Under the pieces are notes generated by a model that did no database searches, was not told the origin of the DNA, and saw only the letters and a list, made by a program, of their open reading frames with translations. A DNA stretch of 64,000 nt from a virus (taxonomy: Duplodnaviria; Caudoviricetes). The stretch covers positions 64,001 to 128,000 of the IMG/VR virus record IMGVR_UViG_2823592041_000002, one strand, 5' to 3'. Positions 9,160-40,882 of the stretch are shown one piece after another; positions within the stretch are counted from its first letter, which is position 1; every line of letters begins with the position of its first letter. A program made the position numbers and the translations under genes.

Positions 9160-9810
9160 ATGAAACTGATAAAAGAGTTGATAGAAGAAGAAAACCTTCA
9201 ATTCATTACCGAAGAAAAAGACGGTGAGAAAAGATATTACATTGAAGGTGTTTTTATGCAAGCAGATGTTAAAAACAAAAATGGTCGAGTTTATGGTTCG
9301 AACATGCTTGCTGAAAAGGTTGAAGAGTATTCCAAAAACTTCATAGAAAAAAATAGAGCATATGGAGAACTCGGTCATCCATCAAACCCTTCTATTAATC
9401 TAGAGAGAGTTTCACATAGGATTATTTCATTAAGGAGAGATGGTTCAAACTTTGTAGGTAAGGCTCAAGTATCAAGTACCCCTTATGGTAACATCGTCAA
9501 AGGTCTTCTTGAAGACGGTGGAAAACTTGGTGTCTCATCTAGAGGTCTAGGATCATTAATGAAGGAAGATGGGATATTGAAAGTCCAGAGTGACTTTTTA
9601 ATCGTCACCCCTGCTGATATCGTAGCAGACCCATCTGCACCTGATGCTTTCGTTGAAGGTATTATGGAAGGTCGAGAATGGGTGTGGGATAACGGTATCA
9701 TTCGTGAGAAAACTGTAGAAGATTATAAACAAGTTGTCGAGAAGACTTCATCAAAAGATTTGAAGATGGTGAAGTTGAAATTGTTTGAAGATTTTCTTTC
9801 GAAACTGTAA
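9160..9810 (+). CDS. gp21: Prohead core protease
   Basis: YIEGVFMQAD.KNKNGRVY, GELGHP, GVSSRGLGSL, DIVADPSAPDAFV motifs. Confidence 0.97.
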   Translation: MKLIKELIEEENLQFITEEKDGEKRYYIEGVFMQADVKNKNGRVYGSNMLAEKVEEYSKNFIEKNRAYGELGHPSNPSINLERVSHRIISLRRDGSNFVGKAQVSSTPYGNIVKGLLEDGGKLGVSSRGLGSLMKEDGILKVQSDFLIVTPADIVADPSAPDAFVEGIMEGREWVWDNGIIREKTVEDYKQVVEKTSSKDLKMVKLKLFEDFLSKL

Positions 9811-9829: not shown

Positions 9830-9866
9830 AGATATAATGAATGGAATACATTTAGGAGTATTAAAA

Positions 9867-10988
9867 ATGTCAGAAAAAAGTGAAATTTTAAATGAAGAAG
9901 AAAATATTGAAATTTCGGAAGAAACTACTGAAGAAACTGAAACTGCCGAGACTACAGAAACTGAAACTGAAACTGAAACTGTAGAAGAAGTTACTGAAGT
10001 TGCTGAAGTTGAAATTTCCGAATTAGAAGAAGAAACTACTGAAACAGAAGTTGAAGAAACTGGTGCTGTATTGGAGAATCTTCTAGAAACTTTACCAACT
10101 TCAAAATCAGGTATGGTTCAAACTATTAATTCCATGTTAGCAGAAATGACAAAAGATGAGTTACAATTTAAAGTAAAACATTTGGTTGAAGTTTTAACTG
10201 CTACTGAAAAAGAAATTCTTGAAAGAGAAGGTGGATTGAACTTAACTGATATTGAATTATCTGACGATGTAAATCAACTTTTCGAAGGTGAAGAGTTTGA
10301 TGTAAACTTTCGAAGAAAAGCAACTTTGTTATTCGAAACTGCTGTTGCTAAAAGAGTTGAAGAAGTTCAAGGTAATATCGAAGAAAACTTCAAACAAGAT
10401 ATGGAAGAACAAGTGCTTGACTATAAAGAGAAGTTATCAGAAGCCGTTGATAAACTTTTGAATGCTTCTATTGAAGATTGGCAAGATGATAATAAACTTG
10501 CTATTCATTCAGGGTTGAAATCGGAAATTACCGAAGAGTTTATGAGTGGTCTGAAAACTCTTTTCAAGGAAAATTATATTGATATTCCTGAAGATAAAGA
10601 GAATGAGTATGTGAATCTAAAAGAGATTCATGACAACACATCAATCAAGTTGAATGACGAAATTGAAAAAAATATCGAACTGAAGTCAACTATCCATGAA
10701 CAGAAAAGAGAAATTTTGTTCTGGGAAAACACTCAAGATTTAACGACAGTTGAACGAGAGAAACTGCAAAAACTTGCAGAAAAAATTGAATTTGATAATG
10801 ATGAGGAATATGTTGAAGGGTTGGAGACAATCCGAAAATGTTATTTTTCAGAAAAGGAAGAATCAACTACTGAAGAAAATACTGAAATTGAAGAAGTTGA
10901 AACTCTTCAAGTAGTAGCTGAAACTACTGAAAAACCTAAAACTAAAATTGAAAGATACGCCCAAGACCTTGGGAAGTATTGGAAATAA
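9867..10988 (+). CDS. gp22: Prohead core scaffold protein
   Basis: Glu-rich; KATLLFETAV, W..DNKLAI..GLKSEITEEFM.GLK.LF.ENYIDIP motifs; lies between gp21 and gp23; AGGAG SD favours ATG 9867. Confidence 0.93.
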   Translation: MSEKSEILNEEENIEISEETTEETETAETTETETETETVEEVTEVAEVEISELEEETTETEVEETGAVLENLLETLPTSKSGMVQTINSMLAEMTKDELQFKVKHLVEVLTATEKEILEREGGLNLTDIELSDDVNQLFEGEEFDVNFRRKATLLFETAVAKRVEEVQGNIEENFKQDMEEQVLDYKEKLSEAVDKLLNASIEDWQDDNKLAIHSGLKSEITEEFMSGLKTLFKENYIDIPEDKENEYVNLKEIHDNTSIKLNDEIEKNIELKSTIHEQKREILFWENTQDLTTVEREKLQKLAEKIEFDNDEEYVEGLETIRKCYFSEKEESTTEENTEIEEVETLQVVAETTEKPKTKIERYAQDLGKYWK

Positions 10989-11087: not shown

Positions 11088-12359
11088 ATGAGTTACGAAG
11101 ATTTGTTGAAAAAGTGGGAACCTGTTCTTGAGCACCCTGAGTTTGCTGAGATTAAGGATCCTTACAAAAAGAAAGTCACAGCAATCCTTTTAGAGAATCA
11201 GGATCGTGATATGGAAGAAGCTAAGAATGGCGGATATGGTTCTCTTAATGAAACTACTAACGTTATCGGAAACGGTAATGCTAATGTAAAAACTTTTGAC
11301 CCAGTTCTTATCTCTATGATTAGACGAAGTATGCCAAATTTGATTGCTTTTGATGTAATGGGTGTTCAACCTATGAACGGACCTTCTGGGCTTATCTTCG
11401 CAATGAAGAGTCATTACGATAGTCAAACTGGAACTGAAGCTCTTCATGATGAAGCTAATACTGGTTTTTCTGGTGACGCAACTGCTAATGGTGCTGCTAG
11501 TCCTTTTGATGCTGCGTATGCTGCTGGTTCTGGTATTGCAACTGCTGATGCTGAACTTTTAGGTTCTGGTGCTGCTGGTGCTGGTGATTTTGCTGAAATG
11601 GCAATGTCCATTGATAAGGTATCTGTAACTGCAAAGTCCAGAGCTCTTAAAGCAGAATACACTATGGAATTAGCACAAGACTTGAAAGCAATTCATAATC
11701 TTGATGCTGAATCTGAGTTAGCAAACATTCTTTCTTCTGAAATTATGGCTGAAATTAACCGTGAAATGATTAGAAAGATTAATTTGACTGCTTCCGCTGG
11801 TGCTGCTGACACTCAAACACCTGGAACTTTTGATTTAGACTTAGATTCCAGTGGTCGATGGTCTGTTGAAAAGTTCAAAGGGCTTTTATTCCAAATCGAA
11901 CGAGATGCTAATGCTATTGCTAAGGCTACTCGACGAGGTAAGGGTAATGTTCTTATCTGTTCCTCTGATGTTGCTTCTGCTCTTCAGATGGCAGGTGTTC
12001 TAGATTATAATCCTGCACTCCAGAATAGTTTACAAGTTGATGATACTGGTAGTACTTTCGCAGGTATATTGAATGGTCGGTATAAAGTTTATATTGACCC
12101 TTATGTATCTGGTGTTGAATATTACACTTTAGGGTACAAAGGTTCCAGTGCTTATGATGCTGGATTATTCTACTGTCCATATGTTCCACTACAAATGGTT
12201 CGAGCAATGGGGGAAAACACTTTCCAACCAAAAATCGGTTTTAAAACTCGATATGGTTTGGTAGCTAACCCATTCGCAACCTCTGCTGGAGATGGTGACG
12301 TTGCTAGTAACAAAAAGAACAGTTACTACAGAGCTGTTAAAGTAGATAACTTATTATAA
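11088..12359 (+). CDS. gp23: Major capsid protein
   Basis: KWEPVL, TAILLENQ, DPVLISMIRRSMPNLIAFD..GVQPM.GP.GLIFAM, SRALKAEYT.ELAQDLKAIH, FQPKIGFKTRYG. Confidence 0.99.
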   Translation: MSYEDLLKKWEPVLEHPEFAEIKDPYKKKVTAILLENQDRDMEEAKNGGYGSLNETTNVIGNGNANVKTFDPVLISMIRRSMPNLIAFDVMGVQPMNGPSGLIFAMKSHYDSQTGTEALHDEANTGFSGDATANGAASPFDAAYAAGSGIATADAELLGSGAAGAGDFAEMAMSIDKVSVTAKSRALKAEYTMELAQDLKAIHNLDAESELANILSSEIMAEINREMIRKINLTASAGAADTQTPGTFDLDLDSSGRWSVEKFKGLLFQIERDANAIAKATRRGKGNVLICSSDVASALQMAGVLDYNPALQNSLQVDDTGSTFAGILNGRYKVYIDPYVSGVEYYTLGYKGSSAYDAGLFYCPYVPLQMVRAMGENTFQPKIGFKTRYGLVANPFATSAGDGDVASNKKNSYYRAVKVDNLL

Positions 12360-30263: not shown

Positions 30264-30296
30264 GAGAGAGTGATCAACTTGATCACTCTCTCTTTT
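30264..30296 (+). terminator. Terminator / perfect 29-bp palindrome
   Basis: GAGAGAGTGATCAA-C-TTGATCACTCTCTC followed by TTTT. Confidence 0.8.
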
Positions 30297-30411
30297 ACTA
30301 GCCTTTTAATTAATAGTGTCATTTCTAATAGGCATAATTCTTGATATTTCACCCTCAAATATAGTATAATAGAATATAGTGAGAGACTAAATAGTTAGTG
30401 AGAGTTTTGAA

Positions 30412-31692
30412 ATGAGTTATTCTATACGAAAATATTTGAAAGAAGATGTCCTTGTTGAAGCAAAAGTAAACAAGAATTTACATCTTGAACACCTTGAAGA
30501 CAATCCACTCAATTTTGGTTATACTGGAATATCTAAAACAATAGATTTCCTAAACGCAACTATTGGTTTATTGTCTGGTTCTGCAAACAAGAGTGTTGAT
30601 GTCACTGTCAAATATGATGGTGCTCCTGCAATATTCTGTGGTACTGACCCAGAGGATGGTAAGTTTTTTGTTGGAACCAAATCAGTATTCTCCAAGAATG
30701 CTAAACTTGTTAAACGGGAGTCCGATTTAGACAAATATGGGTTCTCTGGACAACTCAAAGACAAACTATCCATTGCTCTCAAAGAACTCCCTAAATTGGG
30801 TATTGAAGGGGTCTTACAGGGTGATATGATGTTCACATCTGATGACATCACAACCAAAAAGATAAATGGTGAACCTTACATCACCTTTCAACCAAATACT
30901 ATCATGTATGCTGTTCCTAGCAATTCTGATCTTGCTTCTAAAATGTTGAAGTCTAAAATCGGGATCATCTTTCATACTACATATTCTGGTGATAAACTGG
31001 AAGACATGAAAGCATCTTTTGGTGCTAATGTTTCAAAATTGAACAAAGTCAGCTCAGTTTGGGTTGATGATGCATTTTATAAAGATGTAACTGGATCACT
31101 TTTCTCTGAAAAAGAAACTTCCGATTTAGAGAAAAAGATTGCTAAACTCCAAAGAGTTGGTAATGCTATTAGTAAGAAGTCTATGAATAATATTCTTTCC
31201 GTTCACGATGAATTGAAAACTTCTGAACTTGGTGCTGGATTGAAAACATATTTCAACTCAAATGTTAGAAGAGGTATTTTGCCAAAGTCTGGTGTTACTG
31301 GAGTGAATAACTTCCTTATTCATTTTGGAAATCATTTTGAAGATAAAGTTATCGCAAAAGTAAAACAAGAAAAGACAAAGAATCAGAAGAAGGAAAGAAA
31401 ACAACAACTCCTAAACCTTCTAATCAAGGAAAAAGTTGCACTAGCTAACCTATTAGAATTCATGTTATTGACGATAGATTTGAAGAACTCTGTGATAAGA
31501 AAATTAGAAACAGGAGTTAATTCTAAAATGGAAACTTTTGTAGTTGATAATAAAGGTATCCGAGTTACAAAACCAGAAGGATTTGTTGCTATTGATAAAC
31601 TATCTGGTGGTGCTGTAAAGTTCGTTGACAGACTTGAATTCTCCCAATTAAATTTCACAGTTGACAAGAACTGGTCTAAAGTCTCATCGTAG
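30412..31692 (+). CDS. RNA/DNA-ligase-superfamily nucleotidyltransferase (DUF6267-like), probable head-internal protein
   Basis: HLEHLED, VKYDG (motif I KxDG), QGD, EGFV (motif IV), VKFVDR (motif V); CTAAATA late-type promoter at 30387; N-terminus ends in LKE/LVE. Confidence 0.7.
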   Translation: MSYSIRKYLKEDVLVEAKVNKNLHLEHLEDNPLNFGYTGISKTIDFLNATIGLLSGSANKSVDVTVKYDGAPAIFCGTDPEDGKFFVGTKSVFSKNAKLVKRESDLDKYGFSGQLKDKLSIALKELPKLGIEGVLQGDMMFTSDDITTKKINGEPYITFQPNTIMYAVPSNSDLASKMLKSKIGIIFHTTYSGDKLEDMKASFGANVSKLNKVSSVWVDDAFYKDVTGSLFSEKETSDLEKKIAKLQRVGNAISKKSMNNILSVHDELKTSELGAGLKTYFNSNVRRGILPKSGVTGVNNFLIHFGNHFEDKVIAKVKQEKTKNQKKERKQQLLNLLIKEKVALANLLEFMLLTIDLKNSVIRKLETGVNSKMETFVVDNKGIRVTKPEGFVAIDKLSGGAVKFVDRLEFSQLNFTVDKNWSKVSS

Positions 31693-31700
31693 TATAAATA
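31693..31700 (+). promoter_or_regulatory. T4-type late promoter TATAAATA
   Basis: Exact consensus immediately after the 30412 ORF stop. Confidence 0.75.
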
Positions 31701-31724
31701 GTTATAAATTATTAGGAGAGTAAT

Positions 31725-32231
31725 ATGACAGTTTATAGACCTTTCACTGAGAAACTTGGAGCATCAGACCCAACAACTTTTATCGGTAATGCCGGAGAAC
31801 TTTTTTACAATGCGGATACTCAACAAGTTTTCATTTCCGATGGTTCAACTCCTGGAGGTATTCCAATTGCTGGTGGTGGTGGGGTTCAATCTTCAATAAC
31901 AGATGGAACAAGCACTTTATCTTTTGATAGTAATAATAGAATTTCAATAGATACTCACATTATACCAGACACTAATGCTGCTTATGATTTAGGTAACGCT
32001 GAATACAAAATAAGACACTTATTTTTAAGTGACAATAGTTTAACTATGGGTGATACAACTCTAAGTGAACAGAATATTATCAGAAGTGTCGAAATTGGTG
32101 ATGAACCAGCACCAAACGTTCCTAATGAGCCTGGGAGAAAAGGTGATATTAGGATTAGTCCTGAACACCTATATATCTGTGTTGAAGAGAATCAATGGAG
32201 AAGAGTTTCTTTAGATCCTGCTTGGGTGTAA
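31725..32231 (+). CDS. Short fibre-like virion protein
   Basis: G..GELFY......ISDGSTPGG, HIIPDTNAAYDLG.AE.KIRHLFLS, G.KGDI....HLYICV..N.W.R motifs of T4-like fibre segments. Confidence 0.6.
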   Translation: MTVYRPFTEKLGASDPTTFIGNAGELFYNADTQQVFISDGSTPGGIPIAGGGGVQSSITDGTSTLSFDSNNRISIDTHIIPDTNAAYDLGNAEYKIRHLFLSDNSLTMGDTTLSEQNIIRSVEIGDEPAPNVPNEPGRKGDIRISPEHLYICVEENQWRRVSLDPAWV

Positions 32232-32234
32232 TAT

Positions 32235-32948
32235 ATGAAAAAGATTGTAATGATATTTGGTAGATTTAATCCACCTACAACAGGACATGAGTTGTTAGTG
32301 GACAAGAGTTTTCGTCACGCAAAGAAACTTGGAGCCGAATACGCAATTTTTACATCTAAATCAAATGACCCAAAAAAGAACCCACTATCCATAGATGATA
32401 AAATCAAGTTTATGAAATTATCATTCCCAAAACATAAAAACCGTATACACCATCCAGATGTTATAGGAATTAGAACACCTGCTGAAGTATTAGAATGGTT
32501 GAGTGAAAATGGATATGAAGAACTTCATTTTGTTGTTGGTTCTGATAGAGTAAAATCCTTTGAAGGGATGATAAACTCCATGCAAAAGAAAGGGTACACA
32601 AAGTTTAAGAAAGTTGTTGTTGTATCTGCTGGAGAAAGAGATCCAGATGCTGATGATGTTTCTGGAATGAGTGCATCTAAGATGAGGGGGTTTGTTAAGA
32701 AAGGTGATTTTGATTCTTTCGCAAAAGGCACTCCCATGAATTCTAAAGATGCTAGGAAAATGTTTGATAAACTAAAAGAGGGGATGAAACTCAGTGAAAG
32801 TTATATAACTGAAGTTTTAAAACCATCTGACCCTCTTGAGAAATGGATAAAGGATTTTCTAAAATCTGATGATCCAAGATTTGATGATAAATCAAAAGAG
32901 AAAATAATACAAATGGCTACAGCTGCATATTATGCTGCACAGGAATAA
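32235..32948 (+). CDS. HIGH-family (cytidyltransferase/NMNAT-like) nucleotidyltransferase with an extra C-terminal module
   Basis: FGRFNPPTTGH, KNPL, VVGSDRV, SAGERDPD, MSASKMR; after LSE/ITE a WIKDF..SD.P.F..KSK...MA.AAYY module. Confidence 0.85.
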   Translation: MKKIVMIFGRFNPPTTGHELLVDKSFRHAKKLGAEYAIFTSKSNDPKKNPLSIDDKIKFMKLSFPKHKNRIHHPDVIGIRTPAEVLEWLSENGYEELHFVVGSDRVKSFEGMINSMQKKGYTKFKKVVVVSAGERDPDADDVSGMSASKMRGFVKKGDFDSFAKGTPMNSKDARKMFDKLKEGMKLSESYITEVLKPSDPLEKWIKDFLKSDDPRFDDKSKEKIIQMATAAYYAAQE

Positions 32949-32958
32949 GGAGAATAAG

Positions 32959-34551
32959 ATGCCAGATATAAAAGATATGGAAGGCCCTGTAAGATTTAAG
33001 AAGGGTGTTGAATTATATTTTGACCCTAAAAAAGATATGTTTTATGACCCAAAGAAGAAAAAGTATGTTTCCGAAAAGGATATCTTAAAACTTGAAGATG
33101 TTGATTTCGATGAATTGGAAACAATAGAAGAAGGTGTATATGACCCTTCAATCTTCAAAGCTATATTTATGGCTGGAGGGCCTGGCAGCGGTAAATCTTA
33201 TGTATCTAATAAAGTGACAGCTGGACTTGGAATGAAGGTTGTAAATAGTGACGACATTTTTGAGATTTTCTTGAAGAAGGCTGGAATGACTACAACAGCA
33301 AAAGATATTTTTTCTGATAAAGGTCAAGAGATTAGAGGTAATGCTAAGAGTGTCACTTCTAAAAGAATGAAACTTTATTTGGAAGGTAGATTAGGTTTGC
33401 TTATAGATGGTACTGGTAAAGACTACTCAAACATTAAAAAGAAAGCTGATAGACTTAGAGACTTAGGATATGACACTTATATGGTTTTCGTCAATACATC
33501 TTTGGAAATCGCACAAGAAAGGAATGCTGCGAGGTCTAGAAAATTAGACCCAAAAGAAGTTGAAAAAATGTGGAGAGCTGTTCAAGAAAATATTGGATTG
33601 TTTCAGAAATATTTTGGTGCTAGAAATATGATTATTGTAGATAATAATGCTGCTGATGAGAAATATTTAACAGAAGTTTATAAACAAGTTAAAAAATTGA
33701 TAAAGAAACCTGCACAGAATAGATTAGCTAGAGATTGGATTTCTAAAGCTTTAGATGATAAAGTTAGAAAAGAGAGTGTTGAACTTGAAGAAGTTGACCT
33801 TTTTGAAAAATCTGAAGAATACCAAAAGTTCTTTCAATCTGCTTTGAAAAAGTTTGGTATAGACTCACCTGCTGAATTAGACGACGAGAAGAAAAAAGAA
33901 TTCTTTGACTATATTGATAAGAATTGGGAAGGTGAGAACGAAGAGGACGAAGAAGAAACTATTGAAGAACTATCACTTGAAGAAGCAATCGCAGAAGCAA
34001 AAGAGTGGAAAGTTGGAGCTCCTGTATTCATAGTAATAAGTTATCATACTAATGGAAAACACTCCACCACAGTTCTTAGGACAAAGGAGAAAGCAATGAA
34101 GTTTGCAAAAGATGAAGAATATCATGAAGATGATGTTAAAGGAACTGCTGTTCTTGATATGAAAGTTGGAAAGTTTATTGATAAGAAGACTGGAAAGCAC
34201 ATCAAGGAAGACGTTGAACTTTCCGAAAAGATGCAAAAATATGTAGATGCTTGTGGGAAAGATTTCACAAACTATTCCCTCAAAGAAGGAAAGAAAGATT
34301 ATGAAATTTATCATAAAACTTTCACATCCGCAATTGAAGAAGTAGAGAAGTTTGCTGAGAAGAATGGATATGAAATAGACTCAGATGAAATGTTCAATAA
34401 AGTTGGCACTGGCCCTAAAAAACCTTCTGTCGGTAAAACTAATGAATATCATCTGACACTAATGAAAAATGGTAAAGAAGATAGAAAGAAATTACATTTT
34501 CAAGTTTATGGATTAAAATCCCAGTATGAACTGAACATGTACATCTCATAG
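32959..34551 (+). CDS. Multi-module protein containing a P-loop kinase (zeta-toxin/PNK-like); probable head-internal polyprotein
   Basis: KAIFMAGGPGSGKS, NSD, IDGTG, RN..R.R lid; four further small modules separated by acidic linkers; AAGGAG SD before ATG 32959. Confidence 0.75.
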   Translation: MPDIKDMEGPVRFKKGVELYFDPKKDMFYDPKKKKYVSEKDILKLEDVDFDELETIEEGVYDPSIFKAIFMAGGPGSGKSYVSNKVTAGLGMKVVNSDDIFEIFLKKAGMTTTAKDIFSDKGQEIRGNAKSVTSKRMKLYLEGRLGLLIDGTGKDYSNIKKKADRLRDLGYDTYMVFVNTSLEIAQERNAARSRKLDPKEVEKMWRAVQENIGLFQKYFGARNMIIVDNNAADEKYLTEVYKQVKKLIKKPAQNRLARDWISKALDDKVRKESVELEEVDLFEKSEEYQKFFQSALKKFGIDSPAELDDEKKKEFFDYIDKNWEGENEEDEEETIEELSLEEAIAEAKEWKVGAPVFIVISYHTNGKHSTTVLRTKEKAMKFAKDEEYHEDDVKGTAVLDMKVGKFIDKKTGKHIKEDVELSEKMQKYVDACGKDFTNYSLKEGKKDYEIYHKTFTSAIEEVEKFAEKNGYEIDSDEMFNKVGTGPKKPSVGKTNEYHLTLMKNGKEDRKKLHFQVYGLKSQYELNMYIS

Positions 34552-34559
34552 GAAATAAA

Positions 34560-36002
34560 ATGGATCGAATATCACAATATAAAAAATATCTTAATAATGG
34601 AAAAGAAGATGTTGTGATAGAAGAGGAAGAAATACTCAAACCTTCTGAAATCAAAATATTAGTTCTTACATCTGCAACGGATAGTGAAGAACCTACTGTA
34701 AATAGATTGGAAAAGGTTTGTAAAAAGAGGAGTATTGAACTTCACAGGATTTCTTCTGATAAAGCTTATGTATCCAAGAAGAGTGAATCTAAAGAAACCC
34801 TGATCATTTATAATTATGATGGTGAGGGTAATTCTATGGAAGTAAACTCCAATGATAATATAGTTTGTATTGCCAGAAGAACTGTTGTAACAAACAGAAA
34901 TGCTGGAATATTACATAAGATGTTATCTGATCATGGAGTTTTCTGTATTAACTCCCCAAGTAGTGTAAGAACTGCAAGCAATAAGTTTAACGCATATATC
35001 AACTTTATTAATAATGACATCAAAACACCAAGAACTTGTTTAGTGAGTGATGTGAAATACATTGACGATGCTCTCAAAGAAGTCGGTGGAAAGTTTCCTG
35101 TGATTCTAAAATTTACAGAAGGTCATGGTGGAAAAGGTGTTATGAAACTTGATTCCAGAGACAGTTTAGTTTCCGTTATTCAAGCATTAAGAAGTGATGA
35201 AGAAAATAAAAAAGAGTTAATCCTACAAGAATATAAAGAAGTCAAAGACGATAGAAGAATTCTTGTATTAAATGGTAAGGTGATTGCTGCTGCAAAAAGA
35301 AAGAAAATGAAAAGAGATTTCAGATCAAATGTTTCTTTGGGTGCGGAAGTAGAACCTTATAAACCTACAGAGGAAGAAATAGAGATTGCTGTTAAAACTG
35401 CAAAGTCCGTTGATTGTTATTATTGTGGTGTTGATATCATAGAATACAAAGATGAGTATTTTGTTTTAGAAGTTAATCCATCGCCTGGCTCTAAGTCAAG
35501 TTATTGGGATTTAGATAAAAAGAAAAATATCAACGGAACCGAATTGATTGCAAAACTTGTAGATGGTATAATGGATAAAGATGACTGGAAACATGAGACA
35601 AAAGAAGTCGGAGTTATAGAGGTTGTTGATGTCTTAGAAAAGGGTATTGAGCCAATGACTGCTAAAATGGACACTGGAAATAGTGGATATAATGTTATTG
35701 GTGTTGATAAATTACAAGTTAAAAATAAGACTGCTGAGTTTTATATAAAAGGGTTCGATAAAAAAATAACAAAAAAAGTTCTACCTAAAAAATCTTTGAT
35801 TAAAAATAATGGAAGTAAGACAGAAGAAAGGTATTGTGTAAGTTTTGATATAAAGGTTGGAGAAAAGGTGTATAAAGATGTACATTTTTCTCTTTCAGAT
35901 AGAGATAATATGAATCACACAATATTGATTTCTAGAAAATTTATGATTGATTCTAAAATGAGTGTGAATCCAAAGAAAAAGTTTGTTTTAGGGGAATTAT
36001 AA
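34560..36002 (+). CDS. RimK-like ATP-grasp ligase fused to a retropepsin-like (RimB-type) aspartic protease
   Basis: NKF, TPRT, FPVILK..G.GG.GV, LQEY, DFRSNVSLG, GVDII, LEVN.SPG; C-terminal AKMDTGN, LSDR..M...ILISR. Confidence 0.88.
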   Translation: MDRISQYKKYLNNGKEDVVIEEEEILKPSEIKILVLTSATDSEEPTVNRLEKVCKKRSIELHRISSDKAYVSKKSESKETLIIYNYDGEGNSMEVNSNDNIVCIARRTVVTNRNAGILHKMLSDHGVFCINSPSSVRTASNKFNAYINFINNDIKTPRTCLVSDVKYIDDALKEVGGKFPVILKFTEGHGGKGVMKLDSRDSLVSVIQALRSDEENKKELILQEYKEVKDDRRILVLNGKVIAAAKRKKMKRDFRSNVSLGAEVEPYKPTEEEIEIAVKTAKSVDCYYCGVDIIEYKDEYFVLEVNPSPGSKSSYWDLDKKKNINGTELIAKLVDGIMDKDDWKHETKEVGVIEVVDVLEKGIEPMTAKMDTGNSGYNVIGVDKLQVKNKTAEFYIKGFDKKITKKVLPKKSLIKNNGSKTEERYCVSFDIKVGEKVYKDVHFSLSDRDNMNHTILISRKFMIDSKMSVNPKKKFVLGEL

Positions 36003-36005
36003 ATA
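35998..36005 (+). promoter_or_regulatory. T4-type late promoter TATAAATA
   Basis: Exact consensus upstream of 36038. Confidence 0.75.
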
Positions 36006-36037: not shown

Positions 36038-36289
36038 ATGAGTGGATGGTCAAATGAAGACGGCGCAAAAAAACCTAGTTACTTAACAGATGATGAGAAA
36101 GCAAGATGCTATTGTGATGATAGAGGTTGGGTTTTAGTCCATCTAGATGGTACTGAAGAAGTGTTGGTTTCTGCTAACAGTTTGAATAATACAGATGAAA
36201 AGGGTCATGGATTTGATGAAACATCTGGTGATTCTTTAGATCCAGATAGAGACCCAGCACATGCAGAAAAAGATAATCAATTATCATAA
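36038..36289 (+). CDS. Small virion protein equal to the stand-alone N-terminal domain of 36326..40882
   Basis: WS.EDG..P..L.D.....RCYCDDRGWVLVH.DG.EEV.V.AN.LN...E.GHGF is shared with the next gene. Confidence 0.7.
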   Translation: MSGWSNEDGAKKPSYLTDDEKARCYCDDRGWVLVHLDGTEEVLVSANSLNNTDEKGHGFDETSGDSLDPDRDPAHAEKDNQLS

Positions 36290-36325: not shown

Positions 36326-39300
36326 ATGGTTAAGAAGTTATGGTCCAGAGAGGAAGATGGCCAACTCCCAAATTGGCTAAATGATGAACAAAAAAGTAGA
36401 TGTTATTGTGATGATAGAGGTTGGGTATTAGTCCACAAAGATGGTAATGAAGAGGTTATCGTAGCAGCTAACACTTTGAATGATCCCTCTGAAAGGGGTC
36501 ATGGATTTGAAGATGGTAAATCTAAAGATGCCGACAGGTCAGGTGCTCATAATGACGTTTCATATTCTCTATCAAGGTCTAGTCAAATCATTAATGAAGG
36601 AGCTTTTGCTACAGTAACCCTAACAACTACAGGTGTTGCTGATAATACTCAAGTTCCGTACACTATAGAAGGTGTTGAAGCTGAAGATTTACAAGGTGGA
36701 CAATTATCTGGAAATTTTTTAGTTTCTGGGGGAACTGCCACTTTAAACTTAACAGCTGTCAATGATTCACTAACTGAAGGACCGCAAACTATAACCGTTA
36801 GATTGGGTACTGGTGAATTTATTACGGTTGATATTAACGACACATCAAAAGCACCATCTTACATTCTTTCAGCTCCTGGTAGTGTTAATGAAGGTGAACC
36901 CTTCACAATAACACTTACTACCGAAAACTTTAATGACGGTCCAGTTGCTTATACAATAACAGGAATTGATGACAACGACTTAGATATAGCTGGAGGTTCA
37001 GCGGGTAGAACGGGAAATATTAATGTATCAACCAATACAGGTTCTATAACATTAAAACTTAAAGAAGATTTATCTTTCAATGAAGGTGATGAAACTTTAA
37101 CTTTAACATTAGATGGTGACTTAGATACAATTGATGTAACCGTAGTTGACTCTTCAACAGCGTCACCAACTTATACATTATCAGCGCCTGAAACCATTAA
37201 TGAAGGTCAAGACCTAACAATAACACTTACTACCGAAGACGTTAATGACGGTCCAGTTCCATATACAATAACAGGAATTCAAAACGCAGATTTAGATATA
37301 GATGGAGGTTCAGCAGGGTTAAGTGGAGAATTCACAGTCTCTGGCAGTCCATCCTCTGATAGTATAACATTAAAACTTAAAGAAGATTTATCAGACAATG
37401 AGAATAACGAAAATTTAGTGCTAACTTTGAATAACGGTGAAGATTCAGTATCAGTTACGATTGTTGACACCTCCAAAGCACCAGTCTTCAATTTAACTTC
37501 AAACCCATTGGTTAGTGTTAATGAGGGTGCTTCCCTTACAATAAATTTATCAACCGAGAACTTTTCAGGAAATACAGTTCCATATTTCGTGTCAGGTATA
37601 GATGATAATGATTTAGCTTCTGGTTCAGCTTCACTTAATTCGAATTTCAGTCTAGATGGTAATGGGGATGGTAGTTTAATATTCAACATTAAAGAAGATG
37701 CAACAACAGAGGGTGTTGATAATTTTGTTCTTGAGTTATTGGGCCACGGTCAGCAAATACAAGTAGATATCAATGACACTTCTCTAACCCCAGTTTACAC
37801 TCTATCAACATCACCCCAATTTTCAGTTGATGAGGGTCTTGATTTGGTAGTAACACTACAGACTCAGAATGTCCCTGATGGGGATTATACGTATAATATT
37901 TCTGGTACAGGTTTTGATTCGGATGATTTGAAACCTACTTCAGCAGGTAGAACAGGGAATTTCACAGTCTCTGGCAGTCCATCTACAGACTCCATAACAT
38001 TACAACTGAAAAATGATTACACTTCAAACGAAGGTGATGAAACAATAACTATAGCATTAAATAATGGAGGAGATTCTATTCAAGTTGATGTTATAGATAC
38101 TTCTAACATGGGTTCTACTGATAGAGGTCAATTACCTGTTGTAAACGATAACCTTAAACATTCTTCTGTATCTGATGATGCTCAATATGCAGCATTAGGT
38201 GCTACTTCTTCAGATGGTTCTGTGGAAATATTTAAATATAATGGTACTGGATGGGATTTATTACAAACACTTCCTAAACCAATGGCAGATGCGTTCGATG
38301 CTCATGGTATGGCTACAGCATTCAATTCGGATGGTACAGTTTTAGCAGTTGGTGATGGTTGGGCTAATACCTATAGAGGTAGAGTTTTTATCTATAGGAG
38401 AGATGTAAATAGTGGTTTATTTGGACCAGACCCTGAGCATATAATCGATGGTCCTCACAATGCAACCGCATATTTCGGTCATGGGGTTGCCCTTACTGGT
38501 GATGGTAATCAATTATTTGTCGTTTGTACTCAGACAAACAAAATTTACAGATACGATTATAATAATTCAGAGTGGTCATCTTCCCCAGATTACACACTAA
38601 ACACACCAGTCAAATATAGGGATGTTGATGTTTCATCCGATGGTTTAATGCTAGTTGCTGCTGGTGGCCACGGAGCTCCATTTGAAGCTAGAGTTTGGAC
38701 TTGGGATGGATCATCTTTTACAGACCACTCTGTAGTATCTATGCCAACCCAAAATGCTACTCTCGGTGTGGCAATCTCAAACAAAAAACTCTTAGCCGTT
38801 GGCCAAGTTGGAACCGTTAATCAAGAGAATAGAGTTACACTTTTTGATTTGGATGGAACAACATGGACACCTAGACCATTAGAATCATGGCAAACCAGTG
38901 CAATAGTTGGAAGTTGGACTATCAACAAAGGTTTTAAGATTGCTCTATCTGAACCTAAAAGTGATGGTAAGGTTCTTGTTGTTGACCATGAGGGTCAAAT
39001 GCGTGATATTCTTGCAACAACTGATACATACTCAATTTCTGGCCCGAGCAGTATCAATGAAGGTCAAGATTTAACTTTAACATTGACTGCACTTGGAATT
39101 GATGGTCAAGTTGGATATTCTATCTCAGGAATCACGGATGCTGATTTAGATATAGCAGGTGGTTCAGATTCAGTGGATGGCAATTTCCAAGTTTCTGATA
39201 GTGCAGGTTCTATAACCCTTAAAATAAAAGAAGATGCGAACTCATCTGATGGCTCTTTAGTGTTAACTCTTGACAATGGGGAAGCATCCAAGACTGTATC

Positions 39301-40882
39301 TATTATTGATATAACACCATCTTACGAATTAACATCAAGTCCACAAATCTCAGTTAATGAAGGTTCTACACTTAGAATAAGTTTATCAACTGAAAATGTG
39401 TCTGAAACTTCAATACCATACACTGTGAGTGGTATACAACCAGCTGACTTTAATGATGGGTCTGCTGACATGAATGGAAATTTCAGTTTAGATGCTAACG
39501 GAGATGGGTTTGTTGATTTCCTTATCAAAGAAGATTTAACAACAGAATCAGTGGCTGAGGATTTAGTTCTTACATTAACAGGTCTAGGTGAACAAATAAG
39601 TGTCAATATTATTGATTCATCTAAAACACCTATATGGAATTTGACGACAGACCCAGTTGATTCAGTTGATGAGGGTAATAATTTACTTGTAACATTGGCA
39701 ACTCAAAATGTCCCTGCTGGTAATTATGCTTATCGAATAGAAGGTATTGATGCTGCTGACTTAGACATAGCTGGAGGTTCAGCAGAATTAACAGGGGATT
39801 TTGTAATTACAGGTGCAACAAATGATGCTTCTTCCGATAGTATAACTTTAAAACTGAAAGCAGATGCTACATCAGAAGGTGCTGAGACACTAACTATATC
39901 ATTGGATAATGGTGAAGTTGCCCCGATTACTATCACCGTGAATGACACTTCGAATTCAGACCCAGTTGCAGGTCCACTAATACCTTGGGCCGGTTCAAGA
40001 TACCCTTCAATAAGTGATGATGGTATGTATTCAGCAACTGTCGGTGGTAATCACGCTGCTAATGTTGTAAAATTCTACAAATATGAGAACTCGTCTTGGA
40101 CTCACACTCAAAGTATATCGAACTATGATCCTGGTAGTCAAAATATTGATGGATATGGGGATATTAAAATGTCCTCTGACGGATCAATAGTTGCATATTG
40201 TGACCCATACGCTAATGAAAAGGATAGCATAGTGAGAGTATTTGAAAGGGGTGGAGATGGTCAATATACTTTAAGGGATACATTTACTCCTGGAGGGGGT
40301 GGATTCCAAGCTACTTGGGGTATGGCCTTATCTGAGGATGGTCAAACTATAGTTGTAGGGTCAATGTTAGATTCCAAAATTAGAACTTTTGAGTATTCTA
40401 ACGGTACTTGGAACCCAGTTTCCACTATTAGTATACCAGTTAAACCTATGCAGCTGGACTTGTCATCTGACGGTCAAAAATTATTATTTGGTACTGGTTG
40501 GAATAACACTGCAAATTCTGGGTTTTATATTTATAATAGAGATGGGAATAGTTGGACTCAAGATACTTTTAAATACATTGACAACCCAAACCCTGGAAAT
40601 GTTCGAGTCTGGAGCTCAGCATGGTCTAAGGGTACAAATTTCATAGCTGTTGGAACATCTGGTTATGGAGCATACCCAAGCACAATTTTCTTTTTTGATT
40701 ATGACTCATCTTCAGGTTCGTGGATTCAAAGATCGAGTACAATTGTAGACCCAGCAAGTGAGTTCCAAGGACATTACAATTATGGTTCAAGAATAGCACT
40801 TAGTGAAGAGAATAATGGGCAAATAACTCTAATTACAACTGATGGTAATACATTCACATTACCGGCTGACCCACCAGAATAA
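36326..40882 (+). CDS. Large virion adhesin/decoration protein: anchor, 8 Calx-beta/Ig-like repeats and 2 beta-propellers
   Basis: Eight roughly 100-aa repeats (V/I)(N/D)EG...TLTT...YTI.GI...DL...KED...EG.E; two blocks of FG-GAP-like SxDG blades. Confidence 0.75.
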   Translation: MVKKLWSREEDGQLPNWLNDEQKSRCYCDDRGWVLVHKDGNEEVIVAANTLNDPSERGHGFEDGKSKDADRSGAHNDVSYSLSRSSQIINEGAFATVTLTTTGVADNTQVPYTIEGVEAEDLQGGQLSGNFLVSGGTATLNLTAVNDSLTEGPQTITVRLGTGEFITVDINDTSKAPSYILSAPGSVNEGEPFTITLTTENFNDGPVAYTITGIDDNDLDIAGGSAGRTGNINVSTNTGSITLKLKEDLSFNEGDETLTLTLDGDLDTIDVTVVDSSTASPTYTLSAPETINEGQDLTITLTTEDVNDGPVPYTITGIQNADLDIDGGSAGLSGEFTVSGSPSSDSITLKLKEDLSDNENNENLVLTLNNGEDSVSVTIVDTSKAPVFNLTSNPLVSVNEGASLTINLSTENFSGNTVPYFVSGIDDNDLASGSASLNSNFSLDGNGDGSLIFNIKEDATTEGVDNFVLELLGHGQQIQVDINDTSLTPVYTLSTSPQFSVDEGLDLVVTLQTQNVPDGDYTYNISGTGFDSDDLKPTSAGRTGNFTVSGSPSTDSITLQLKNDYTSNEGDETITIALNNGGDSIQVDVIDTSNMGSTDRGQLPVVNDNLKHSSVSDDAQYAALGATSSDGSVEIFKYNGTGWDLLQTLPKPMADAFDAHGMATAFNSDGTVLAVGDGWANTYRGRVFIYRRDVNSGLFGPDPEHIIDGPHNATAYFGHGVALTGDGNQLFVVCTQTNKIYRYDYNNSEWSSSPDYTLNTPVKYRDVDVSSDGLMLVAAGGHGAPFEARVWTWDGSSFTDHSVVSMPTQNATLGVAISNKKLLAVGQVGTVNQENRVTLFDLDGTTWTPRPLESWQTSAIVGSWTINKGFKIALSEPKSDGKVLVVDHEGQMRDILATTDTYSISGPSSINEGQDLTLTLTALGIDGQVGYSISGITDADLDIAGGSDSVDGNFQVSDSAGSITLKIKEDANSSDGSLVLTLDNGEASKTVSIIDITPSYELTSSPQISVNEGSTLRISLSTENVSETSIPYTVSGIQPADFNDGSADMNGNFSLDANGDGFVDFLIKEDLTTESVAEDLVLTLTGLGEQISVNIIDSSKTPIWNLTTDPVDSVDEGNNLLVTLATQNVPAGNYAYRIEGIDAADLDIAGGSAELTGDFVITGATNDASSDSITLKLKADATSEGAETLTISLDNGEVAPITITVNDTSNSDPVAGPLIPWAGSRYPSISDDGMYSATVGGNHAANVVKFYKYENSSWTHTQSISNYDPGSQNIDGYGDIKMSSDGSIVAYCDPYANEKDSIVRVFERGGDGQYTLRDTFTPGGGGFQATWGMALSEDGQTIVVGSMLDSKIRTFEYSNGTWNPVSTISIPVKPMQLDLSSDGQKLLFGTGWNNTANSGFYIYNRDGNSWTQDTFKYIDNPNPGNVRVWSSAWSKGTNFIAVGTSGYGAYPSTIFFFDYDSSSGSWIQRSSTIVDPASEFQGHYNYGSRIALSEENNGQITLITTDGNTFTLPADPPE

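Follow-up and report, generated by a model that had tools for sequence, protein, structure and literature searches.

In bacteriophage T4, the internal proteins IPI, IPII and IPIII and the packaged enzyme Alt carry an N-terminal leader of 10–19 residues with aromatic residues at positions 4 and 7, Ile or Leu at position 8 and Glu at position 10, which is removed by gp21, and these cargo proteins, otherwise unrelated, are injected with the DNA. Truncation and suppressor experiments assigned residues 4 and 7 of this capsid targeting sequence (CTS) to capsid targeting and residues 8 and 10 to processing (PMC9026906), and the CTS was proposed to let T4-like phages load varied proteins (PMC9026906; for the CTS see also PMC3012670). 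The present work concerns a block of four enzyme genes in a 64,000-nt stretch (hereafter the window) covering bases 64001-128000 of a 136,879-bp virus record from IMG/VR (IMGVR_UViG_2823592041_000002) with a completeness estimate of 76%, whose nearest named relatives, all Kyanoviridae, are Pelagibacter phage HTVC008M, Methylophilales phage Melnitz and cyanomyoviruses. The block codes for a DUF6267 protein, a HIGH-family nucleotidyltransferase, a P-loop kinase protein and a RimK ATP-grasp ligase fused to a RimB-like protease. We put at about 0.55 the probability that these four enzyme families are phage-head cargo in marine T4-like phages (Kyanoviridae and relatives) and that the window block encodes members of them. 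Capsid targeting itself is known from T4, and what would be new is a CTS-type leader carrying an enzyme set in marine phages.

The marine enzyme families share the T4 leader pattern. Many members of each family begin with a leader of about 10 residues, M-x-x-F/Y-x-x-F/Y-I/L-x-E, which keeps positions 4, 7, 8 and 10 of the T4 CTS, and in the T4 record the N-termini of ipII and ipIII are 10-residue leaders of the same pattern. Most DUF6267 relatives begin with M-x-(S/T)-F-x-x-(F/Y)-(L/I)-x-E followed immediately by a conserved KNxHLEH box, and a minority of them start at the box itself. The leader is modular, being present or absent within each family and stopping exactly where the catalytic domain starts. 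Unlike the small basic anti-restriction proteins of T4, the marine cargo would consist of sizeable enzymes, their genes lie in the replication module, and the leaders found in the window are divergent. The preliminary description of this DNA had relied on leaders ending in a bare (I/L)-x-E; the N-termini quoted there are indeed present in the sequence, but [LI]xE starting within the first 25 residues was found in 45 out of 179 genome open reading frames (ORFs), which is the chance level, so in that form the motif carries no information.

A strict regular expression was written from the ipII/ipIII leader and used to scan six-frame ORFs of at least 60 aa in whole genomes. In T4 it matched ipII and ipIII only (2/335 ORFs), in S-SM1 only the nucleotidyltransferase SSM1_190 (1/395), and in S-CREM2 the SAM hydrolase gp6 and the nucleotidyltransferase gp154 (2/329). 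Three matches among 438 ORFs were obtained for S-SZBM1, namely the nucleotidyltransferase _140 and the products _191 and _192, and two among 324 for Melnitz-1, both flanking DUF6267, while the single match in HTVC008M (1/246) is at a second ATG and is probably spurious. At the family level, the expression matched 42 of 148 DUF6267 representatives, 34 of 76 nucleotidyltransferase loci and 13 of 72 close RimK-RimB relatives, compared with 0/24 distant RimK proteins and 0/120 members of the T4 Rnl1 family taken as a control. The nucleotidyltransferase loci were drawn from IMG/VR as the 80 best of 586 relatives plus six close ones, 76 of these 86 having both the catalytic box and an upstream stop. 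Many further family members miss the strict expression by one residue. Among 282 ORF N-termini of the window's own genome there was one match, a spurious minus-strand ORF, and shuffled N-termini gave a mean of 0.545 per 282. Both leaders, that of DUF6267 and that of the nucleotidyltransferase, were missing together at 2 of 51 loci, where about 3.4 would be expected from the margins; this difference is not significant, and the idea that the two leaders complement each other within a genome was dropped. The S-SZBM1 products _191 (105 aa) and _192 (165 aa), encoded in the head module (OL473597, 122311-123125), have canonical T4-type leaders and look like classical small internal proteins; they are absent from the published virion table.

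Published virion proteomes point in the same direction for the nucleotidyltransferase. The core "citidylyltransferase" T4-GC190 was found in purified S-SM1 virions (Sullivan et al. 2010, PMC3037559), and according to the notes of the S-SM1 record GC190 is SSM1_190 and the DUF6267 gene SSM1_189 is GC71. The nucleotidyltransferase S-SZBM1_140 is listed in virion Table 1 with 2 peptides (PMC9146016), and NMNAT-like proteins are described as "frequently detected" in cyanophage virions (PMC9602691). Table 3 of virion proteins of S-CREM2 includes gp6, gp13, gp14, gp15, gp136 and gp154 (PMC10665884), whose N-termini are all CTS-like, with 19 peptides reported for the SAM hydrolase, 21 for the APH-like kinase and 3 for the nucleotidyltransferase (PMC10665884). 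Altogether, four of the six ORFs matching the strict expression in S-SM1, S-SZBM1 and S-CREM2 were detected in virions, the chance of at least four being about 0.0095 as calculated from the detected fractions. Also in favour of the packaging reading, the DUF6267 copies of S-SZBM1 and S-CREM2, which are leaderless, do not appear in the virion tables. Searches that combined capsid targeting with cyanophages turned up no paper linking the two, and no targeting signal is named in the available parts of the virion papers; in the S-CREM2 paper (PMC10665884) the words targeting, CTS, N-terminal and propeptide are all absent. The S-CREM2 genome (OR473000, 3837-13331, locus L020) contains a cluster of non-structural virion proteins with CTS-like N-termini, namely gp6 (SAM hydrolase), gp13, gp14 (APH-like kinase) and gp15. 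A similar peptide lies about 17 residues inside the annotated start of the Cas9-like gp12, the start of which may be mis-called.

The 237-aa nucleotidyltransferase of the window is an orthologue of the virion cytidylyltransferase/NMNAT-like proteins of cyanomyoviruses (S-SM1 T4-GC190, S-SZBM1_140, S-CREM2 gp154 and S-SCSM1 ORF91), with 39–47% identity over the catalytic domain (39% to S-SZBM1_140, E 1e-35). The cyanomyovirus virion copies carry the leader together with extra N- or C-terminal domains, whereas the window copy has neither. The proposal that the block's enzymes are loaded into the head by a T4-type leader and trimmed by the prohead protease is strongly supported by family comparison, gains further support from the nucleotidyltransferase orthologues found in virions, and is moderately supported for the copies in the window.

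The window genome encodes both a gp21-type prohead protease and a gp22-type scaffolding core protein, the latter with an [LI]xE density of 4.7 per 100 aa compared with 0.6–2.2 in the other proteins examined. The window DUF6267 protein starts with a divergent 16-residue leader ending in L-V-E directly before the conserved KNLHLEH box, and throughout its clade a conserved peptide, invariably ending in (V/I/L)-L-x-E or I-L-E, precedes the box. RimK has a leader of about 23 residues ending in I-E-E-E before the first strand, at the place where relatives have canonical leaders. In the kinase protein, residues 1-64 form an N-terminal module and 68-279 the kinase, with the site I65-E66-E67|G68 at the boundary; further small modules follow. 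Identity with the HTVC008M kinase is 52.6% (residues 65-279 aligned with its residues 6-220). In the HTVC008M protein an 8-residue leader precedes the junction L-K-E|GLYDP, and the window protein has I-E-E|GVYDP at the same point; in a fusion protein from IMG/VR (L108) a canonical leader ends in Q-E|GVYDP at this junction. In the nucleotidyltransferase the first strand of the fold (MKKIVMIFGRFNPP) stands at the very N-terminus and there is no leader, contrary to the preliminary description, in which all four products were flagged for prohead-protease processing. Two ORFs of the same genome beyond the window have N-termini of a related appearance: a 343-aa DnaJ-domain protein (L019:6513-7541; PF00226, E 1.6e-8) with a leader-like peptide ending in Y-L-T-E, and a 132-aa ORF (L019:2088-2483) whose N-terminus resembles that of the window DUF6267 protein.

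By analogy with T4, the leader would bind the proteins to the scaffolding core and the prohead protease would cut after the leader glutamate, so that the trimmed enzymes would lie with the DNA, enter the host at infection and act before phage gene expression. The cuts proposed in the window are after E16 in DUF6267, after E67 in the kinase protein and after the I-E-E-E run in RimK; the nucleotidyltransferase, lacking a leader, would either be carried into the head by a partner or stay outside it. Packaging by a CTS-type leader appears well supported for the families and moderately so for the window phage, in which the leaders present are divergent and none matches the strict expression, the nucleotidyltransferase is leaderless and the DUF6267 gene has an early-type promoter.

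The block may also be divided with respect to transcription. The octamer TATAAATA is enriched in the window (24 sites compared with 7.65 expected, a number reached in 0/100 shuffles), 12 of the 21 plus-strand sites fall between genes in a window of which 93.5% is coding, and the genes for the scaffold, major head, tail tube and fibre have sites in front of them, so that the octamer behaves like a genuine late promoter of the T4 type. The site at 31693, already proposed as a late promoter, is credible as such: the arrangement TAG-TATAAATA at the DUF6267 stop codon is kept in four out of four close relatives (L072-L075). In these relatives, which lack the 168-aa ORF, the nucleotidyltransferase gene starts about 20–25 nt after TATAAATA, indicating that the promoter belongs to the nucleotidyltransferase-to-RimK operon. 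The heptamer CTAAATA at 30387, also taken earlier for a late-type promoter, is on the contrary not supported as one: it is rarer than expected (7 sites compared with 17.9) and is located within a conserved cassette, namely in the ~45-nt leader that follows the sigma70-type promoter of the DUF6267 gene; four out of four close relatives have TTGACT-17-TATAAT and the same leader before DUF6267, though the genes upstream differ. Going by these motifs, the nucleotidyltransferase-to-RimK operon may be transcribed late from the conserved TATAAATA, and the promoter of DUF6267 is of the early type.

There are five plus-strand ORFs between 30412 and 36002 (426, 168, 237, 539 and 480 aa); those described earlier all exist, the 168-aa one having gone unmentioned. 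The late promoter and the nucleotidyltransferase gene are separated by this fibre-like ORF, which shares the reading frame of that gene and looks like a recent insertion. No homologue was found in four out of four close relatives (L072-L075), and for this reason it is regarded as a phage-specific insertion outside the enzyme set. The block is located inside the replication module, with gp41 on one side and gp61 on the other, so the statement that it does not sit among early metabolic genes does not hold: the genes for DNA polymerase, UvsX, gp41 and an exonuclease are upstream and the gp61 primase gene is downstream. An equivalent placement is seen in HTVC008M, Melnitz, ACG-2014a, S-SZBM1 and S-SM1. 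A 374-aa upstream ORF was rejected as a member of the block, having no homologue adjoining DUF6267 in the relatives.

With regard to enzyme identity, the HIGH nucleotidyltransferase, P-loop kinase and RimK/protease assignments were borne out by Pfam and NCBIfam, whereas the product of the gene at 30412, described as ligase-like, is a DUF6267 protein with no significant match to a ligase or capping-enzyme family. HIGH nucleotidyltransferases are characterized by motifs of the (H/T)xGH and SxxxxR type. The 237-aa protein scores 27.5 bits with PF01467 (CTP_transf_like, cut-off 21), and its G17-H18 and S146-A147-S148...R151 are invariant in six sequences; the first motif reads TTGH and not HxGH as had been stated. 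An NMN (nicotinamide mononucleotide) adenylyltransferase in the strict sense is not indicated by the equivalog models, which gave 24.9 bits vs 341 (TIGR01526) and 24.2 vs 112 (TIGR00482), and the best match among PDB sequences is NadR, at a weak E of 0.034. The arrangement of a HIGH nucleotidyltransferase, with its weak best matches to NadR and NMNAT, next to a P-loop kinase resembles the NadR adenylyltransferase and ribosylnicotinamide kinase pair, from which it differs in scoring far below the NMNAT cut-offs.

The kinase protein matches the polynucleotide kinase family phrog_505 weakly (E 1.8e-7), over the P-loop part only, and AAA_33/Zeta_toxin match better; no phosphatase family was matched in Pfam and NCBIfam scans, so it does not look like a polynucleotide kinase of the PseT type. 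A P-loop kinase beside a protein with ligase motifs, of which motifs IV-V align with Rnl1, is reminiscent of the T4 RNA repair pair of polynucleotide kinase and RNA ligase 1, but the homology to the ligase is not significant, the kinase match is weak and no phosphatase domain was found. The RimK part exceeds the TIGR00768 cut-off (168 bits vs 143.4) and falls below that of the S6-specific equivalog PRK10446 (79.5 vs 331), and the RimB-like part scores 34 bits with PF05618 (cut-off 27) and 35 vs 200 with the NCBIfam RimB equivalog. An ATP-grasp domain above the RimK cut-off with a retropepsin-like RimB-type domain recalls the bacterial RimABK system of S6 glutamylation (PMC11957791). The phage differs in that its RimK and RimB domains are fused, often with a CTS-type leader or a nucleotidyltransferase, and in the low RimB equivalog score.

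The members of the set are joined to each other in other phages in several ways: nucleotidyltransferase-DUF6267 (P0140, P0178), kinase-DUF6267 (P0187), kinase...nucleotidyltransferase (L108) and nucleotidyltransferase-RimK-RimB (P0414-P0416 by Pfam, and more recognized by their N-termini). In many marine phage proteins (P0412-P0438) a single chain of 640–830 aa contains the HIGH nucleotidyltransferase fused with RimK-RimB, and these fusions suggest a shared substrate or pathway, which is explained by no known system. A 650-aa Melnitz protein considered as a nucleotidyltransferase-kinase fusion was discarded, since no kinase region was revealed in it by BLAST. The kinase protein of the window has a mosaic structure, with modules that are shuffled among close relatives: one of these (L074:5337-6659) keeps the modules 3-61, 295-335 and 429-448 without the kinase domain, and a separate Melnitz protein of 462 aa matches residues 457-537 over part of its length.

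A number of observations weigh against packaging, most of them concerning the window phage, and several of them would be accommodated if its enzymes were ordinary cytoplasmic accessory enzymes, belonging to the replication and nucleotide-metabolism region, with nothing packaged, their N-terminal peptides being decayed leaders or unrelated to leaders. The strict expression matched 0/232 ORFs of the window's own genome, and the window DUF6267 protein fits only a relaxed pattern that was devised after seeing its N-terminus. The leader is absent from the nucleotidyltransferase of the window and its close relatives, as it is in 13 of the 76 relatives. The similarity between the DUF6267 and RimK leaders in the window, though the best in the genome (score 37), is not significant, shuffled queries giving a mean best score of 31.5 and a maximum of 40, and the kinase protein does not qualify as a polyprotein by its (I/L)xE density (2.2 per 100 aa compared with 1.95 in gp41). 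The location of the block between gp41 and gp61, the sigma70-type rather than late promoter of DUF6267 and the chance-level frequency of bare [LI]xE fit a cytoplasmic role as well, and no exact TATAAATA was found before the block in HTVC008M, S-SZBM1 and ACG-2014a. Among the virion data, DUF6267 is not reported in the published tables examined, as far as these were available; the nucleotidyltransferase was not detected in S-PM2 virions (PMC3037559); and no report of N-terminal processing of these proteins was found in the available literature. Nevertheless, we regard a purely cytoplasmic role as somewhat unlikely, given the conserved ending of the peptide before the box in the window's DUF6267 clade, the position of (I/L)xE exactly at domain junctions that bear canonical leaders in relatives, and the conserved late promoter of the nucleotidyltransferase-to-RimK operon, which would be unexpected for replication enzymes. 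It is also conceivable that the leader is another kind of N-terminal signal (a tag for degradation or assembly, or codon bias at translation initiation) and that the virion detections are carry-over of abundant late proteins. AT-rich genomes tend to favour Lys, Asn and Phe codons after ATG, and the numbers of nucleotidyltransferase peptides in the S-SZBM1 and S-CREM2 virions are low; moreover, abundant proteins may survive purification in caesium chloride (CsCl), as cautioned in PMC9602691, a caveat that applies to the packaging reading in general. An explanation of this sort seems very unlikely, since the strict expression finds only ipII and ipIII in T4, none of the Rnl1 controls and about 0.5 per 282 shuffled N-termini, the positions kept in the leader coincide with those that experiments identified in T4 (PMC9026906), and in S-CREM2 the leader occurs on such unrelated virion proteins as the SAM hydrolase, the APH-like kinase and gp13.

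The DUF6267 protein might instead be the nick-sealing DNA ligase missing from marine T4-like phages, acting in the cytoplasm at the replication fork, with the nucleotidyltransferase and kinase supplying a cofactor, for example nicotinamide adenine dinucleotide (NAD) from NMN. In the ligase/capping enzyme superfamily the motif I lysine lies in KxDG and is followed by motifs III, IV and V in this order. In 101 DUF6267 sequences K67, D69 and G70 are conserved at 90% or more and D138, E389, G390 and K403 are invariant, and we take K67-x-D69-G70, D138, E389-G390 and K403 to be arranged as ligase motifs I, III, IV and V would be. With hhalign, E389-G390 and K403 were aligned with E227-G228 and K240 of T4 Rnl1, the best result (P 0.024) covering only a C-terminal piece with motifs IV-V, and 4 of the 101 members touch Pfam RNA_lig_T4_1 (best E 6e-4). 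No match to the ligase families PF01068, PF01653 and PF09414 was found in the window's own genome (76% complete), HTVC008M, Melnitz-1 and ACG-2014a, nor to PF09511 in the own genome at the same completeness, while the PF01068 and PF09414 ligases of T4 itself were recovered by the same searches; the lack of a recognizable DNA or RNA ligase in the marine phages checked keeps this explanation in play. The family is also widespread: 465 phage records contain it, almost all of them from marine T4-like phages, and it comprises more than 2,300 cluster representatives. Its gene lies in the replication module in the window's genome, HTVC008M, Melnitz, ACG-2014a, S-SZBM1 and S-SM1. No paper on DUF6267 was found in a literature search. 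On the other hand, no profile comparison was significant: hhalign against a 39-sequence Rnl1 family gave a probability of about 1%, the comparisons with T4 gp30 and Rnl2 were likewise not significant, phmmer and profile searches of PDB sequences, with the protein and a 101-sequence profile respectively, returned coiled-coil noise only, and an Rnl1 hidden Markov model gave at most 8 bits with 268 DUF6267 sequences. Twelve members gave matches of comparable E-value to SWI2_SNF2, an unrelated family, none of 10 further members matched Rnl1 in a Pfam scan, and the ESM Atlas had no model of the protein and no named neighbour. Thus, of the ligase-like character ascribed to the product at 30412, the conserved motifs in the right order stand and significant homology does not, and from its sequence the odds that DUF6267 is a ligase-type nucleotidyltransferase appear roughly even. 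A replication ligase would have no need of the CTS-type leader borne by many DUF6267 copies, and the absence of known ligases in the own genome comes from an incomplete record; we therefore consider the missing-ligase explanation unlikely and favour the view that the enzymes are head cargo.

The theme most likely to unite the enzymes is nucleotide or cofactor chemistry, in which NMN or a related phospho-compound would be adenylylated, the kinase would contribute a phosphorylation step and DUF6267 would act as a lysine-nucleotidyl transferase. The roles put forward in the preliminary description, namely RNA repair, NAD restoration and ribosome modification, are conjectural. More tentatively, the CTS may be a portable label across marine T4-like phages that predicts an injected proteome, including the fusion-linked enzyme set here and the SAM hydrolase and APH-like kinase elsewhere, and the enzymes may act on host nucleotide cofactors, RNA or ribosomes before phage expression; this broader claim is less likely than not. 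Few viruses in the sea are as abundant as the T4-like phages that infect cyanobacteria, SAR11 and OM43, and an unexpected "cytidylyltransferase/NMNAT" has repeatedly been noted in their virions in published papers, with no reason offered for its presence. Should the T4 address label function in marine phages, these detections would be accounted for, a simple sequence rule would allow injected proteins to be listed from metagenomes, and four enzyme families, including the very abundant DUF6267, would be marked as effectors of the first minute. Host take-over or counter-defence would then have a further, as yet undescribed component, widespread in the oceans and acting in the first seconds of infection.

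Table 1 Coordinates of the enzyme block, its regulatory signals and related genes in the 64,000-nt window
Feature	Position	Strand	Evidence or remark
Gp21-type prohead (head maturation) protease	9160..9810	+	phrog_207, E 1.5e-72; would trim the leaders
Gp22-type scaffolding core protein	9837..10988	+	phrog_237, E 2.7e-49
Major head protein	11088-12359		phrog_138, E 3.6e-159; after the scaffold gene
DNA polymerase	22584		Upstream of the block
UvsX	25092		Upstream of the block
gp41	26108		Upstream of the block, as is an exonuclease gene
Intrinsic terminator hairpin closing the upstream cassette	30264..30292	+	13-pair stem, then T run
Sigma70-type (early) promoter of the DUF6267 gene	30341..30370	+	TTGATA-18-TATAAT, 11/12 matches
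DUF6267 protein, 426 aa	30412..31692	+	PF19782, E 3.7e-102
T4-type late promoter TATAAATA	31693..31700	+	Heads the operon from the 168-aa ORF to RimK
Fibre-like ORF, 168 aa	31725..32231	+	PF18454 (Mtd_N), 23.1 bits, below the cut-off of 26.3
HIGH-family nucleotidyltransferase, NMNAT-like, 237 aa	32235..32948	+	PF01467; no leader
Modular P-loop kinase protein, 539 aa	32932..34551	+	AAA_33/Zeta_toxin, residues 76-238
RimK ATP-grasp glutamate ligase fused to RimB-like retropepsin protease, 480 aa	34560..36002	+	
Next late promoter TATAAATA	35998..36005	+	33 nt before ORF 36038
gp61 primase	45925		Downstream of the block

The block is followed by two ORFs (36038-36289 and 36326-40882) which share a near-identical N-terminal segment with a weak match to DUF7440. 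The second of them, located behind the TATAAATA site at 35998, codes for a repeat-rich protein of 1518 aa, which is probably structural.

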